NCBI GenBank assembly: GCA_951406725.2
Contig: OX597829.1
Coordinates: forward strand, 45,942,001-46,006,000
Direction of reading: 5' to 3'
Length of the DNA stretch: 64,000 nt
Origin: Octopus vulgaris
Lineage: Eukaryota
The translations under genes and the position numbers were made by a program. Shown one piece after another: positions 21,499-32,158 of this stretch. A model generated the notes under the pieces. It was not told where the DNA came from, searched no databases, and saw nothing but the letters and a program-made list of their open reading frames with translations. How positions within the stretch are numbered: position 1 is the stretch's first letter; every line of letters begins with the position of its first letter.

Positions 21499-21549
21499 TT
21501 TGTCAAAATATTTTCGTCGCTTTGAGACCGCGACCTGCTCACTGACAAA
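21499..21549 (-). ncRNA. Hammerhead-like motif with G3-C8 swapped core (GTGAGCA)
   Basis: Minus: TTTGTCA-GTGAGCA-G-GTCGC(ggtctcaaa)GCGAC-GAAA-ATAT-TT-TGACAAA. Confidence 0.7.
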
Positions 21550-22555
21550 ACTTCGTGCTGCATCTGAGAAAGTAACGGTTAGTTCATGATATATATGTAC
21601 GTATGTATGTGTGTGTGTATGTATGCATATATGTATGCATGCATGCATCTATGTATGTATGTATGAATATATGTATGTATGTGGCTACATGTATGTGCGC
21701 ATGCATGTATGCATGCCTATACGCGGAAGTATTTAGGAGAGTGTGTAGACGTGTCTCTGTGTATGTACATGTGAACGTATGTTTATTTACTGATATGCGT
21801 CAGTTCACGTTGTATACATGACTGTTACCTTGTTGAGGGTTGTATATATACACATATATACATTTATATATACACACACACATATATGTGTGTGTGTGTG
21901 CGTTTGACCCTCTCACGCCCGTCTAACGGTGAATGGATACAACGTCTTAGATACATATATGCACATACAACCTTATACATATATACAAGTACACACAATC
22001 ATATAGACACTTACAGATACTCACAAATATACGTATAATCTTAAAGTATACACACATATACGCTCATCCATCTCTACATACATATATATATATATATACA
22101 TATACATATACACACACATAATACATACTTTTATTCATACGAACGTAATTGATATGAAATATGTCATGAATAGCAGGGACATTTTCATATGACACGGCAA
22201 AAAATTGCTGTTGATACATTACGGCAGAAATCGTTTTCACCTCAATAGACGTCATTGATTGGCTGAAATTGCCGAAAATTAAGAAATTAAAGACCAAATA
22301 TCTTACAAACTACAGAATTTTCTCAAGAAAGCCAAGAGAAAAAGATGTTTTATAAACACATTCTACCAGTATAGGAAGTTTAAAAGTGTTTAGTTACAAA
22401 GAAACTATTTTAAAAATCTGCCAAAAAGATCTCCGTAATATATATATATATATATATATATATTTCAACAATTGAGGGTAAAATTAATTAATTAATCAAT
22501 TTCACCAAGTATTCAGTATGCAAAGGGACCATTTAAGGCGAATTCAAATTATTAC

Positions 22556-23072
22556 ATTATATAAAAGGGCTTAGTAAAATAAATTACTTTGCCGCATACT
22601 GAACTCATTAGAAATAGCAGCTAAAAAAACTTTTTTAAAACTATTTCCAATACTTAAAGAAAACCTCTCTCATATAGTGTTTGCTCAATTCAACTCACGA
22701 AAGTATGGGGGTAGAGACATTAAAAAATCAAATGCAAAGGTTTAGTTTCGAGCAGATCTTCAGAAGCGATAACAAGCCGAAAGGGTATGCTCCCACTTTC
22801 AGTGTTTTCAAATCCAAACCAGGGAATTCTGAGCTGATGATAGAAGTGTCGATTTTGACTAATCTTGAAACGTACGTTCTCAAATAACCTTTGCATTTGA
22901 TTTTTTAATGTCTCTACCCCCATACTTTCGTGAGTTGAATTGAGCAAACACTATATGAGAGAGGTTTTCTTTAAGTATTGGAAATAGTTTTAAAAAAGTT
23001 TTTTTAGCTGCTATTTCTAATGAGTTCAGTATGCGGCAAAGTAATTTATTTTACTAAGCCCTTTTATATAAT
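22556..23072. repeat. Essentially perfect inverted repeat, arms 22556-22742 and 22886-23072, in an element (~22466-23072) bounded by (TA)n
   Basis: 187-bp arms with no mismatch seen by eye; 143-bp spacer containing an HHR. Confidence 0.95.
22830..22882 (+). ncRNA. Type I hammerhead ribozyme motif (canonical core)
   Basis: TGAG-CTGATGA-[TAGA..GTC(gatttt)GAC..TCTT]-GAAA-CGTACG-TT-CTCA; palindromic stem III ACGTACGT. Confidence 0.75.
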
Positions 23073-23260
23073 ATATATATATATATATATGTATATGTAT
23101 ATATATATATATATGACATATCCGTGTATTTGCGTGTGAATATATATGTATGAGTGTCTGTGTGTATAGATGTGTGAGTGTATACGTATATGTATTGGTA
23201 CGTATGTATATGCATGCATGTATATATGTATGTATGCTATATATGTTATGTATGTACGTA

Positions 23261-23670
23261 TACTCTTTTACTCTTTTACTTGTTTCAGTCATTTTGACTG
23301 CGGTGATGCTGGAGCACCACCTTTAGTCGAGCAAATCGACCCCAGCACTTATTCTTTGTAAGCCTAGTACTTATTCTATCGGTCTCTTTTGCCGAACCGC
23401 TAAGTTACGGGGACGTAAACACACCAACATCGGTTGTCAAGCAATGCTAGGGGGACAAACACAGACACACAAACACACACACACAAATATATATACACAT
23501 ATATACAACAGACTTCATTCAGTGTCCGTCTACCAAATCCACTCACAAGGCATTGGTCGGTCCAAAGCTATAGTAGAAGACACTTGCCCAAGATGCCACG
23601 CAGTGGGACTGAACCCGGAACCATGTGGTTGGTTAGCAAGCTACTTACCACACAGCCACTCCTGCGCCTA
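23261..23670 (-). mobile_element. CORE-type octopus SINE, full length
   Basis: Head TAGGCGCAGGAGTGGCTGTGTGG and tail (GAGTAAAA)n on the minus strand. Confidence 0.9.
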
Positions 23671-24169
23671 TATGTATACGTTTGTATTTGCGTCTGTAGC
23701 CAGGCACGTGTTTTCGATGGTTCACCAGAAATACTGTTATCCGATCATTCAGATGCATTACCTACTCGCCCACCCACATACATCCACCCTACTTCTAAGG
23801 TCATATAATGTGACCTCTGTCCCCACAGTACCGTTGGCGACTACCTCCGACGTCTTATCTGCGCTAGTTTACGTTTGTGGTTAGGAAGTACCTGGATCAC
23901 AACCCACCCCTTACCCTGTTCCCTCCTTTTCCTCCCGCTGGCTTTGTACCTCTATATTTATATAAAGGAAGTATCCTGGTCTTGTACCTCTAAACTAGTG
24001 TTTCTCAACCATTTACTACCTAAAGACCCCTTTGATTTTTGTTTTATGCGAAAAGACCCTCCTAGTCATCCGATATTTTAAAATCCTATAATATCTTAAT
24101 AATTGAATATTATTAGGAATTTTATACAAACAAACAAAAAAAAAATGACTGTTAAAATATTTTGTGTAT

Positions 24170-29179: not shown

Positions 29180-30786
29180 CTTTTGTAATATTTCTGCTGT
29201 TTGTGTGTTTACATCTCCGTAAATAAGAATAAGTCCCAGGTGTTAAAAAAGTACTAGGAGCTATTCACTCGACTAGAATTCTTCAAGGCGGTGCCCCAGC
29301 ATGGCTGCAGTCTAATTACTGACACAAAGAGAAGATAAAAGATAACAAATAATTCTATTTGTCTTAAAAGACGTCTATAATGATATCACAGCAGTCACGG
29401 TTTTGTGGTTCGCAACGACGTGGTTTCGGGTTCAGCCCTCTTTACGTAAGCTTTTCCTACATTAGCCTTGGACTGACCAATACCGCGTGAGCGAATTTGG
29501 TAAACAAAATCTGTGTGAAAGCCCGTCGTAATGACTCCCTGGGTCAATGTTCCGATGGGTCAATTTAATCGTCTAAACCCGTGGTACTGAACTGCGGCTT
29601 CTAGGGTGGCATATAACCCTTAAGCATCCTTCCGGTGGCCCTCGGCGGTGTTCCTTGTGTAATAGTGCTTTTCTTTAATTGACATATATTTTAGGTAGGG
29701 GGGCTCCGAAGGGGTCTCAGGGAGTGGCGTCCCTGCCTTCCTGAGCTAGTTTTTCCACCACATTTCTTAAAAGTTATGGTAGAGGCCTTGGTCTCGGAAT
29801 CACTCATGTCTAGAAGCTGAGGTTAGGGGTAGAAAATCCAGATCATGAAAATCCAGAAAAAAGCTTCATGGTAGCAAAGATAGCTGGCATGAGCCAGGCC
29901 AAAAGTTGGGCTGTAACTGCCTACCTCGGTTGCTATGACATTGAGGTACCCCCATTAAAGGGGACAAAACTCGGGTTTAAAACACTGGATGATGATGATT
30001 ACTGTTTTTGGTGCGGCCCTCTGAAAAGATCTCGTCTTTAGATTTGACCCTGATATTAAAAAGGCTGAAAATCACTGGAGTAAAACCTTCAATGCGGTGC
30101 TCCAACATGCCACAGTTCACTGAATGAAACGAGTAAAAGACCAAGGTAGTTGTAATCGTTATTATTACAACAATAAGAGCAAGCTAACGAGTAAGAGAAA
30201 TCCACTGAGAAAGTCTCGAAGCGGTCGCTGAATCTGCTAAAAATATTGCCGCAAAATCTCCCTCAAATCACACTTCATTGCAGTAAAGGAAGAAAAGCAT
30301 TTTTGGATAAATCTAGGCGTTGATATTCAAATCGATGGTTATCACAAGAATGCTTCCGTTCATAGACCTCCTTGACAGAGGTGACAACACCGATAATAAC
30401 ATTCCGTTATCTTAGCGCGCTGACCCCTTTTAATCCAAACCGTCTAAGACTGTCTTTGAGTCTAATATACAAACTTTTTTTTTAAAGTGAGCTGAATTTA
30501 ACCCTTTAGAGTTCAGATTATTCTGTCAAATGTGATATTTGTTTATTTATATTATTTTGAATTAATCATGCATTATCTTGTGATGTGATTTTTTAGTTTT
30601 AGAATGACATGGTAGGGCTGAGGTGAGAGGCGAGATCTGGTCATTTTCAATATAAAACAGGTTAAATATTTTGGCCAGATATGGCCGGTTTGAATGCAAA
30701 AGGGTTTTAAGTATTCCAGGAACACTTCCTTTTACTTTATGCTCCAAACATAAGATTAGTAAATCCTTCGTTATTTTTCAAATCAG

Positions 30787-31075
30787 CTAAGTTAAATTAA
30801 GTTAAGTTAATTTTTTGGTTCAAAAAGCAAAAAGCAAGGCCATGTAAGGAGACATGGAGTTATGTACAGGGAGGGTGTTCATGCAAAGAGTTCAGGCCAT
30901 TTCTGGTCCAGAGAGACTTTGAACCGAGCGGTCGTCGGCATCTTCACCATCTCGTCCGGCAGCTTATTCCACGGATCCGCAACCCGGACGGAGAAAGCCC
31001 CTCTCCTTCGATTGAGATGAAATCGTCGCAGATAGAGCTTTTCGGAGTGACCCCGCAGCCGACGTTCTGGAGCTG
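30787..31075 (-). mobile_element. CR1-type LINE 3' end
   Basis: Minus: RLRGHSEKLYLRRFHLNRRRGAFSVRVADPWNKLPDEMVKMPTTARFKVSLDQKW, then a 3'UTR and (TTAAC)n tail. Confidence 0.85.
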
Positions 31076-31956
31076 AAACACGTCAGCGTATTTGCGCAAA
31101 AACATAGTAACAAAAGTGTTAATGTCGACCTTTCAATATCTATCGATGAATTGTTTAAATAATCTAAAGGCAAGTAAATGTATTCATGCTTTATTCAAAC
31201 CGGAAACGATCTCATTAAAAAGTCCAATGTACAAACATCCAATTCTTTTCAAGCGGAAACTTTTCTTCTCATTGTTGTTATATCTGGTTTTTGATGTACT
31301 AAATTCCTTAACAGGATGACTAAGTGACTAAGTGTGTTTCAATACGTGAAATCATATTTCGCATAACTCGTGATACAACGGATATATGAACACACAAACA
31401 CACACACACACCCTCACACACACTCACGTACACACACATATATGGTGGTTGCCATTTCTTTACGGAAGAACATCATTTCTTCAGTTAGTAAATGTCTCAC
31501 GTGACCAGCAAATCCAGCTTTTGACAAACATTCTATTATAGATGTTATAAATATTTCAAGCCAGAAAAGTCTCTGGAATTGGAGACAAGTTGTGTTTACG
31601 ATGTGTTGAAGATGGGCGATCGATTAATTATGCTTCAAGTGCTTTACAACCACCATATATATATATATATATATATATATATATATATATATATATATAT
31701 ATATATATATATATGTGTGTACACACACACACACACACACACACACACGCACACACACACACACACACACACACTCACACACACACACACACACACACAC
31801 ACACACACACACACACACACACACACACACACACACACACACACACACATATATATATACACATATATATATATACAATTGCAGCGTGGAAGGTGTTTGT
31901 AAGCCATTTAAGAAACACACAAAAGCCGTTCGATTCACTTCAACATTTAAGTTTAA

Positions 31957-32006
31957 TTTGTCAAAATATTTTCGTCGCTAAAATCCGCGACCTGTTCACT
32001 GACAAA
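31957..32006 (-). ncRNA. Hammerhead-like motif with G3-C8 core (mirror copy)
   Basis: Reverse complement of 32109-32158. Confidence 0.7.
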
Positions 32007-32108
32007 ATTTCGTGCTGCATCTGACCTGTTCACTGACAAAAAGCCGTGCTGCATCTGCAGATGCAGCACGGCTTTTTGTCAGTGAACAGGTCAGATGCAG
32101 CACGAAAT

Positions 32109-32158
32109 TTTGTCAGTGAACAGGTCGCGGATTTTAGCGACGAAAATATTTTGACAAA
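32109..32158 (+). ncRNA. Hammerhead-like motif with G3-C8 swapped core (GTGAACA)
   Basis: TTTGTCA-GTGAACA-G-GTCGC(ggatttta)GCGAC-GAAA-ATAT-TT-TGACAAA; 7-bp stem I, palindromic AATATT stem III. Confidence 0.7.

Follow-up and report, generated by a model that had tools for sequence, protein, structure and literature searches.

Swapped-core hammerhead motifs in the window

Within the window, the whole 64,000-nt stretch of Octopus vulgaris DNA that was analysed, a descriptor search found three copies of a G3-C8 hammerhead motif from two insertions:

21499..21549, minus strand: hammerhead motif copy 1, descriptor match with a 7-bp stem I and a 5-bp stem II, and fold; G3 at 21542, C8 at 21537, predicted cut between 21506 and 21505, 9-nt loop II
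31957..32006, minus strand: hammerhead motif copy 2, descriptor match; G3 at 31999, U17 at 31964
32109..32158, plus strand: hammerhead motif copy 3, descriptor match and fold; predicted cut after 32151

In copy 3, stem I is formed by 32109-15/32152-58 (7 bp) and stem II by 32124-28/32137-41 (5 bp, with G10.1-C11.1). The 5' core reads G3 (32116), U4, G5, A6, N7 (32120), C8 (32121) and A9, with an extra G (32123) between A9 and stem II, and the 3' core consists of G12 (32142), A13 and A14, the palindrome AATATT (32145-50) spanning A15.1 to U16.1, and U17 (32151). Apart from positions 3 and 8, the core thus agrees throughout with the pattern known from minimal type I hammerheads in Penelope-like elements (PLEs): U4, G5, A6, A9, G12, A13, A14, A15.1-U16.1 and H17 are all present, and positions 3-8 read G3-C8, not C3-G8, in all three copies. 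G3 and C8 are complementary, so that a Watson-Crick 3-8 pair is predicted to be possible. In the MFE and centroid structures of all copies the two stems close the core as a three-way junction. Three marks of PLE hammerheads are also present, i.e., the extra nucleotide 32123, the pair G32124-C32141 (pair probability 0.996) and the palindrome AATATT. As predicted for searches built on the canonical CUGANGA core, which should miss a swapped one, Rfam gave nothing at gathering score over the whole window and no hammerhead at two loci searched at E up to 10, where only chance matches (TLS-PK5, cyano-S1) appeared.

The silence of Rfam even at E 10, together with fold z-scores of only -0.6 to -3.0 at the loci, is what could be said for a chance hammerhead likeness in the hairpin-rich end of a repeat. 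Against it, a stem I of at least 7 bp with a stem II of at least 5 bp occurred in none of 20,000 sequences made by dinucleotide shuffling from the 205-nt element (looser 4+4 stems in 4 of 20,000) and was matched 0 times in 30 shuffled windows. The exact family pattern had 0 matches in metagenome and viral contigs. A relaxed pattern of the core letters alone gave 115 loci, 43 of them distinct, in the 31 of 64 metagenome parts scanned, and none of these 43 had both stems at 4 bp or more. Because neither the 20,000 shuffles nor the 43 background matches have the stems, and the location is one typical of PLE hammerheads, chance likeness is largely refuted and very improbable; the swapped-core hammerhead motif is confirmed as real.

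Insertions and the family unit

The motif copies lie within the following features:

21487..21566, minus strand: insertion 1, pseudo-LTR fragment sharing 90% identity with insertion 2 over 81 nt
31875..32057, minus strand: insertion 2 left arm, inverted copy, 100% complementary to 32058-32240
32024..32091, no strand assigned: palindrome centre, a 34-nt partial 5'-end duplicate on each arm
32092..32300, plus strand: insertion 2 right arm, family unit of 5' leader, hammerhead, spacer and ORF start with tail
32208..32300, plus strand: first 31 codons of the parent ORF, ATG directly after TAA, matching the N-terminus of O. sinensis LOC115227545
32241..32300, plus strand: tail, a one-sided extension of about 60 nt between two 3' ends, followed by (TA)n

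The motifs that start at 31957 and 32109 sit in the opposite arms of a single perfect inverted repeat with 183 bp per arm (31875-32057/32058-32240), so the three motifs count as two insertions. The original prediction of two independent insertions whose copies differ within the motif only at N7 and in loop II was therefore borne out, with the inverted repeat uniting two of the three copies. Insertion 1 has lost its 3' end into (TA)n before the ORF start. The left arm of insertion 2 stops at the family's first 3' end (the equivalent of 32240), lacks the tail, and carries an ORF start at 31907 that is cut after 11 codons. The 34-nt duplicates at the palindrome centre comprise the 5' strand of stem I and a GUGAACA half core, and contain neither stem II nor GAAA.

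The family unit is supported by 4,657-16,816 contigs per run in four public runs, in which loose contig ends accumulate before 32093 and behind 32242, the latter coinciding with the start of the tail. The runs also contain opposite-strand joints at 32093-32100, head-to-tail joints and the two 3' ends, and family copies show inverted 5' joins, two 3' ends (with the tail, defined as in PMC11167929 and PMC8557442) and (TA)n flanks. A pseudo-LTR arrangement is seen in the two head-to-head arms of 183 bp, one of which is extended by 60 nt, and in the opposite-strand and go-back joints of the runs. No tandem of full units is present in the window. The perfect palindrome may be an assembly artefact, as the run alignments begin at 32092, short of its centre; opposite-strand joints like those of the palindrome do occur in the public runs.

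Conservation of the core across the family

Variants were surveyed at a 2% threshold in the same four runs, which have four organism labels and 4,657-16,816 contigs each. None reached 2% in any of the four at G3, U4, G5, A6, C8 or A9, nor at G10.1, A13-A15.1, U16.1 or U17; G3 and C8 are fixed across the family. CpG decay accounts for variants at G12 (2-4%) and C11.1 (3-6%), and only one non-CpG change is common within the stems and core: A>G at 32154 (7-15%), which replaces U-A by U-G and leaves the pairing in place. Loop II varies, and its two subfamilies have an identical G3..C8 core; subfamily markers near 50% frequency are found only outside the motif. Of the non-CpG sites, 1 of 35 is variable in core and stems, whereas loop II has 4 variable ones among 7 (p 0.0015). 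The expectation that variation among copies would concentrate in N7 and the loops thus held for loop II and failed for N7, which differs between the two insertions and is invariant at 2% in the family; since no variant reaches that level, the N7 change is a private mutation of little evidential weight. Covariation at 3-8 within the family is not demonstrated, because no C3-G8 relative was seen (neither C3-G8 nor U3-A8 reached 2% in the four runs).

Core and stems (1 of 35 non-CpG sites variable) are not significantly more conserved than the 3' region (13 of 84; p 0.063); upstream of stem I, too, all 15 non-CpG sites are free of variants. For the contigs of the four runs, as distinct from raw reads, the listed loose ends show no accumulation at the predicted cut. 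The codon-position signal of the ORF start is weak, 4 of 9 variable sites lying at third positions. Words of the stretch were present at 0.55 in five runs presumed to be RNA and at 0.14 in one recorded RNA run.

The parent ORF and related elements

The ORF ATG lies 50 nt downstream of the hammerhead. Its identity is established at the level of protein sequence: 28 of the 31 residues are identical to the N-terminus of Octopus sinensis LOC115227545, with the same Met, and the window peptide is the N-terminus of P0002, which is 78% identical to P0003 where the two overlap. P0003, an O. vulgaris relative, contains LPPKFA (143), TDKSG (292) and YGLRKDHK (364), spaced, as judged by eye, like the DK and RT1 motifs in Fig. 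S7 of PMC8557442. P0003 had no match in Pfam, NCBIfam or PDB, and its single-sequence fold reached a pLDDT of 34.5. The 31-aa peptide had 0 matches among 1.84 billion protein representatives; the parent ORF had none among proteins of 570-2000 aa or in viral contigs and no usable match in the Atlas, so that searches of proteins and viral contigs recovered no parent RT core, endonuclease or full-length ORF. Pfam found no PLE domain in 70 of the 313 non-repetitive window frames. The element is likely a PLE pseudo-LTR with an ORF start, a PLE identity that rests on motifs recognised by eye.

Minimal type I hammerheads of metazoan PLEs were described by Cervera and de la Pena 2014 (PMC4209133). The octopus motif resembles them in being type I and in its extra nucleotide after A9, its G10.1-C11.1 pair and its rudimentary palindromic stem III, as well as in its pseudo-LTR seat, the prevalence of solo copies and opposite-strand pairs 100-700 bp apart. 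The PLE-type assignment is favoured because three of these marks, the extra nucleotide, G10.1-C11.1 and palindromic 15.2-16.2, were present without having been selected for. The differences are that those hammerheads are C3-G8, with U3-A8 (Schistosoma) the sole 3-8 covariant reported in the text consulted; that the extra nucleotide is G in place of the consensus H, although File S2 of PMC8557442 has G in 5 of its 34 rows; and that stem I has 7 bp instead of 4-5. The natural U3-A8 hammerheads of Perreault et al. 2011 (PMC3088659) share a compensatory 3-8 change, there a double transition, whereas G3-C8 is a double transversion that exchanges purine and pyrimidine.

Poseidon PAc of Anolis carolinensis (Frangieh et al. 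2024, PMC11167929) is alike in that its hammerhead adjoins the ORF start, where it too has two 3' ends (a tail), and in its AT-rich targets; it differs in a natural C3-G8 core and in an ORF that begins inside stem II, whereas the octopus ATG lies behind stem I. The octopus tail of about 60 nt exceeds the typical 30-40. Among octopus PLEs, Naiad_Obim, Naiad_Ovul and Hydra-1_Obim (Craig et al. 2021, PMC8557442) likewise prefer (TA)n targets, and Hydra shares KDHK in RT1 with P0003; Hydra-1_Obim differs in its C3-G8 core and its ORF start. Naiads were published as having (TA)n targets and no canonical hammerheads (PMC8557442). Identity with a Naiad was considered and rejected, as five DNA and seven peptide motifs of the element had no match in the PMC8557442 supplement, where line breaks may hide matches. 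Of 68 GUGANCA places in that supplement, none of the 28 listed was hammerhead-like by eye.

Predicted folding and cleavage

G3 is paired with U17 in the predicted ground state (probability 0.67; -15.4 vs -14.1 kcal/mol), and this wobble, which extends stem I, may be a specific risk to activity. In secondary-structure energies only, the dimer model has -28.8 kcal/mol, compared with -28.2 for two open monomers and -30.8 for two G3-U17 monomers, the AAUAUU duplex being worth only -0.2 kcal/mol. The corresponding duplex of the 16453 element has -1.7 kcal/mol. Any cleavage would likely be weak and assisted by dimer formation or protein. The UUU triplet had been read as a further sign of weakness, a view contradicted by U17 in 10 of the 34 PLE hammerheads listed in PMC8557442 File S2. 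A G3-C17 trap has been reported for G3-C8 variants (PMC3884650), and U17 favours the swapped core because it avoids that trap. The claim that the G3/C8 double change restores activity holds in part and not fully (PMC11167929 and PMC8495972). G8C cuts the hammerhead rate 10^5-fold (PMC8495972), and engineered C3G/G8C partly restores cleavage of the anole PLE, which needs the element's protein (PMC11167929).

Interpretation

Fold, core letters and family structure are established by these observations. The prediction that a multicopy family of animal retroelements uses a non-canonical hammerhead was supported, and can be refined: we consider the element, at a probability of about 0.6, to be a high-copy, likely Penelope-like octopus pseudo-LTR with an ORF start, carrying a minimal type I G3-C8 hammerhead that would likely cleave weakly after U17 and only as a dimer or with protein assistance. 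The PLE reading is favoured by the opposite-strand and head-to-tail joints and by the presence of two 3' ends, all of which agree with the structure of PLE insertions (PMC8557442). Given the sharp 5' boundary at 32093, the parent would be transcribed from just upstream of the hammerhead, and reverse transcription would begin within the ORF, near +33-35 or near +90, as in the anole PLE. Such an internal start would yield short copies of leader, hammerhead and ORF start that land in (TA)n, and these would frequently have an inverted partner and a tail on one side. In a full element, the AAUAUU palindromes of two direct pseudo-LTRs could form a 6-bp stem III, with G3 pairing with C8, which would position the 2'-OH of residue 8, and G12 serving as the base. 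The window copies are most likely inert, because their solo or head-to-head arrangement would not form the dimer in cis.

A hammerhead descendant that no longer cuts, whose fold is kept as a protein-binding or promoter-overlapping element or rode along in a copying burst, and whose G3-C8 is a relic, is a possibility we take seriously while holding it the less probable. The favoured G3-U17 mispair, the very weak stem III and a conservation not significantly above that of the 3' region fit it, as do the dispensability of the anole hammerhead for insertion in vitro (PMC11167929), the success of Naiads without canonical hammerheads (PMC8557442) and a path from C3-G8 to G3-C8 that crosses an inactive mismatch (the slow G8C of PMC8495972); yet the two changed letters together would again allow Watson-Crick pairing, and neither loop II subfamily has lost any other core letter, with the roughly 50% markers confined to the outside of the motif. 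Improbable in our view is an active hammerhead in a short, possibly circular, non-autonomous retrozyme- or SINE-like RNA unit free of a PLE parent. It would account for the sharp ends at 32093 (5') and 32242 (3') and for some head-to-tail joints, and animal retrozymes do derive from PLE pseudo-LTRs (bioRxiv 10.64898/2026.07.22.740005), but the window has no tandem array, the unit stops inside the ORF start where PLE reverse transcription begins, its ends do not fall at the cut site as a ribozyme-processed monomer needs, and longer ORF-bearing copies exist (P0002, P0003). Membership of the non-LTR retrozyme class was rejected, as that class has non-coding tandem units and this unit ends in an ORF start.

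Laboratory swaps provided the proof of the C3-G8 pair. In the literature consulted, the largest PLE-hammerhead survey excepted, the natural set of this pair consists of C-G and U-A, with natural U3-A8 but no natural G3-C8 hammerhead. We suggest tentatively, at somewhat less than even odds, that a PLE lineage at very high copy in several octopus genomes has a working G3-C8 hammerhead with a U17 that suits the swap, a third natural identity of the core pair. If so, whole families escaped the surveys based on CUGANGA, and swapped cores may lie unnoticed in some PLEs regarded as lacking a ribozyme. With a fixed G3-C8 family the set would be complete, and a ribozyme would be shown to be able to cross an inactive intermediate and then be compensated. 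Such a family reveals neither new chemistry nor a new element class. It bears on the question whether PLE hammerheads are selected to cut, and supplies a test pair (wild type vs C3-G8 revertant) and a concrete correction to search descriptors.

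The G3-C8 motif in the window

The original prediction had placed three copies of a hammerhead with a G3-C8 core pair in the window, and all three positions were confirmed (21499-21549 and 31957-32006 on the minus strand, and 32109-32158 on the plus strand). In BLAST of the element (32092-32300, plus strand) against the window, only two loci were detected, i.e., insertion 1 (21487-21566) and insertion 2 (31875-32300), both with (TA)n flanks. Insertion 2 consists of two 183-bp arms in perfect inverted repeat with no spacer between them; each arm carries a 34-nt partial duplication at the centre, and the right arm is longer by approximately 60 nt. 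The plus-strand copy is numbered as follows:

G3, 32116; C8, 32121; extra G, 32123; G10.1, 32124
C11.1, 32141; G12, 32142; A15.1, 32145; U16.1, 32150; U17, 32151

A hammerhead descriptor permitting any Watson-Crick 3-8 pair gave five matches in the window: the three G3-C8 copies plus one canonical C3-G8 motif each at 3618 (+) and 16453 (-). The observed stem lengths were reached by 0 of 20,000 shuffles of the element and in none of 30 shuffled windows, and stems I and II are present in the predicted MFE and centroid structures of both insertions. Rfam returned no hammerhead match at the G3-C8 copies, nor one at gathering score at the two canonical motifs; the G3-C8 motif escapes consensus searches. 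As judged from sequence, the motif is real, family-wide and located at the site expected for such a hammerhead, the ribozyme itself being a predicted one. Approximately 22 nt (21567-21590) separate insertion 1, at its 5' end, from the AT-rich flank; they look like 32178-32192 of a family variant, oppositely oriented, and may be a tiny inverted fragment like the 32093-32185 joints in public runs.

The two canonical motifs, both descriptor matches, are:

3610-3660, plus strand: canonical type I hammerhead (C3-G8) whose stem III region is a 10-nt palindrome, within 3279-3888
16410-16461, minus strand: canonical C3-G8 minimal hammerhead of Penelope-like element (PLE) type, in an element at approximately 16380-16705

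The former sits off-centre between two 240-bp inverted arms (93% identity), and 3279-3888 is probably a retrozyme-like element or the end of a further PLE. The latter has an extra A, a 6-bp stem II, an ACGT palindrome and U17, and its element includes an inverted partial duplicate at 16634-16700.

Variation of the family in public runs

Among the 24 public runs listed, 20 contain the element stretch wholly or partly (19 at no less than half of the words); they come from 12 studies and comprise four organism labels and one marine metatranscriptome. One run per organism label was aligned to 32092-32296 at 80% likeness, with differences reported from 2%. The contigs aligned (16,816, 7,353, 4,657 and 10,803 per run) show a large family, and these counts are not copy numbers. 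Relative to the ORF start, the 5' core had a summed depth of 0.15-0.35; many copies therefore have no 5' half or are broken at loop II.

No variant of at least 2% was found in any of the four runs at 32092-32125 (5' side of stem I, G3 to A9, G10.1) or 32143-32153, nor was any C3 or G8 form at that level. Variation within the motif consists of CpG decay (1-6%, including G12), loop II, and 32154 A>G, present in all four runs at 7-15% with stem I pairing retained as U-G. Loose ends revealed a second loop II subfamily, matching insertion 1, with an identical G3 to C8 core. The markers near 50% (32164, 32184, 32190, 32216, 32248) all lie outside the motif, at similar frequencies in the four runs. 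With CpG sites and 32249-32296 (where no variant row was reported) set aside, 1 of 35 sites is variable in the core and stems. Compared with this, loop II has 4 variable sites of 7 (Fisher p 0.0015), and the downstream part has 13 of 84 (p 0.063), including 32243, which is private to the window copy. Variation had been expected to concentrate in the free core position N7 and the loops; across the four runs this held for loop II and failed for N7, and selection acting on the hammerhead core is only suggested.

Element ends and ORF start

Loose ends accumulate before 32093 (38-70 contigs per run) and behind 32242 (39-52), and the flanks beyond are AT-rich and unrelated. Opposite-strand joints begin at 32093-32100, and go-back joints occur at 32228-32240. 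These joints and ends match the PLE build described in PMC8557442, an inverted truncated 5' copy with a one-sided tail. In 4/4 runs the last letter of the loose-end consensus before 32093 is G, the flanks otherwise being AT-rich and unrelated; this G may be a reverse-transcribed cap marking the transcription start or a subfamily letter, and is a hint only.

An ATG at 32208, immediately 3' of a TAA, starts a frame of 31 codons that runs to the element end, and 28 of the 31 residues are identical to the start of the Octopus sinensis LOC115227545 protein (P0002), whose first 224 residues gave no Pfam match. Beyond residue 224, P0002 is a methyltransferase exon; the gene model fuses 224 residues of element ORF to it, probably a prediction artefact and possibly an exonised insertion. 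An O. vulgaris hypothetical protein (P0003) overlaps P0002 (78%) and extends through LPPKFA, TDKSG and YGLRKDHK, which by eye have the order and spacing of GxKF, DK and RT1 in the PLE alignment of PMC8557442. The two 3' ends of the element, at +33-35 and approximately +90 from the ATG, are consistent with the Poseidon element of Anolis carolinensis (anole PLE), in which two reverse-transcription start sites within the ORF start define the tail (PMC11167929). We infer that the element belongs to an octopus genome and that its parent is a PLE.

Proposed working of the hammerhead

A full element would carry one hammerhead in each of two direct pseudo-LTRs. Stem III of the monomer (2 bp, 2-nt loop) cannot close, and two paired AAUAUU palindromes would give 6 bp; such dimers have been proposed for PLE hammerheads (PMC4209133; review PMC6765202). 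Because the proposed acid is the 2'-OH of residue 8 (PMC6155905), the base there would be changeable as long as the 3-8 pair is kept. The rate drops 10^5-fold with G8C and is partly rescued by C3G (PMC8495972), and in the anole PLE hammerhead the 3-8 double change likewise partly restores activity, cleavage occurring only with the element protein present (PMC11167929). For a G3-C8 variant, G17 is reported to give higher activity than C17 (PMC3884650, data not shown there), so U17 would avoid the worst mispair.

The fold model has G3 paired with U17 (probability 0.67) and gives the dimer no advantage in secondary-structure energy. The mispair speaks for a silent relic, a tenable reading that we rank lower. 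Given partial rescue, the protein need, the G3-U17 mispair and the unfavoured dimer, weak, assisted cleavage would be expected, with a probability of roughly 0.58. The window copies are solo or head-to-head, and a read-through transcript of insertion 2 is predicted to form a single long hairpin (-337 kcal/mol) with both motifs buried.

Relation to known hammerheads

No natural G3-C8 hammerhead was found in the literature searched, which included portions of bioRxiv 10.64898/2026.07.22.740005 and 10.1101/2021.04.23.441226, and from which Lunse et al. 2016 and Przybilski and Hammann 2007 are excepted; the former, which surveyed such variants in PLEs on a large scale, could already contain the class. 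Natural U3-A8 hammerheads are reported in PMC4209133 and PMC3088659. All 34 of 34 hammerhead rows in File S2 of PMC8557442 are C3-G8, and the core search there used ^cuganga. Neither hammerhead nor ribozyme is mentioned in the searched terms and text passages of PMC13282606 on O. vulgaris repeats, and a term search of PMC11014351 gave no match.

Other repeats in the window

The remaining repeats are:

11800-13470, minus strand: frames resembling what we take to be decayed non-LTR retrotransposon pieces
37480-38170, plus strand: frames resembling decayed non-LTR retrotransposon pieces (weak Exo_endo_phos match, 37482-37715, E 4.5e-4)
41500-42253, minus strand: decayed mariner-type transposase remnant (Pfam Transposase_1, E 1e-21)
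60886-61688, minus strand: decayed mariner-type transposase remnant (Pfam Transposase_1, E 1e-7)
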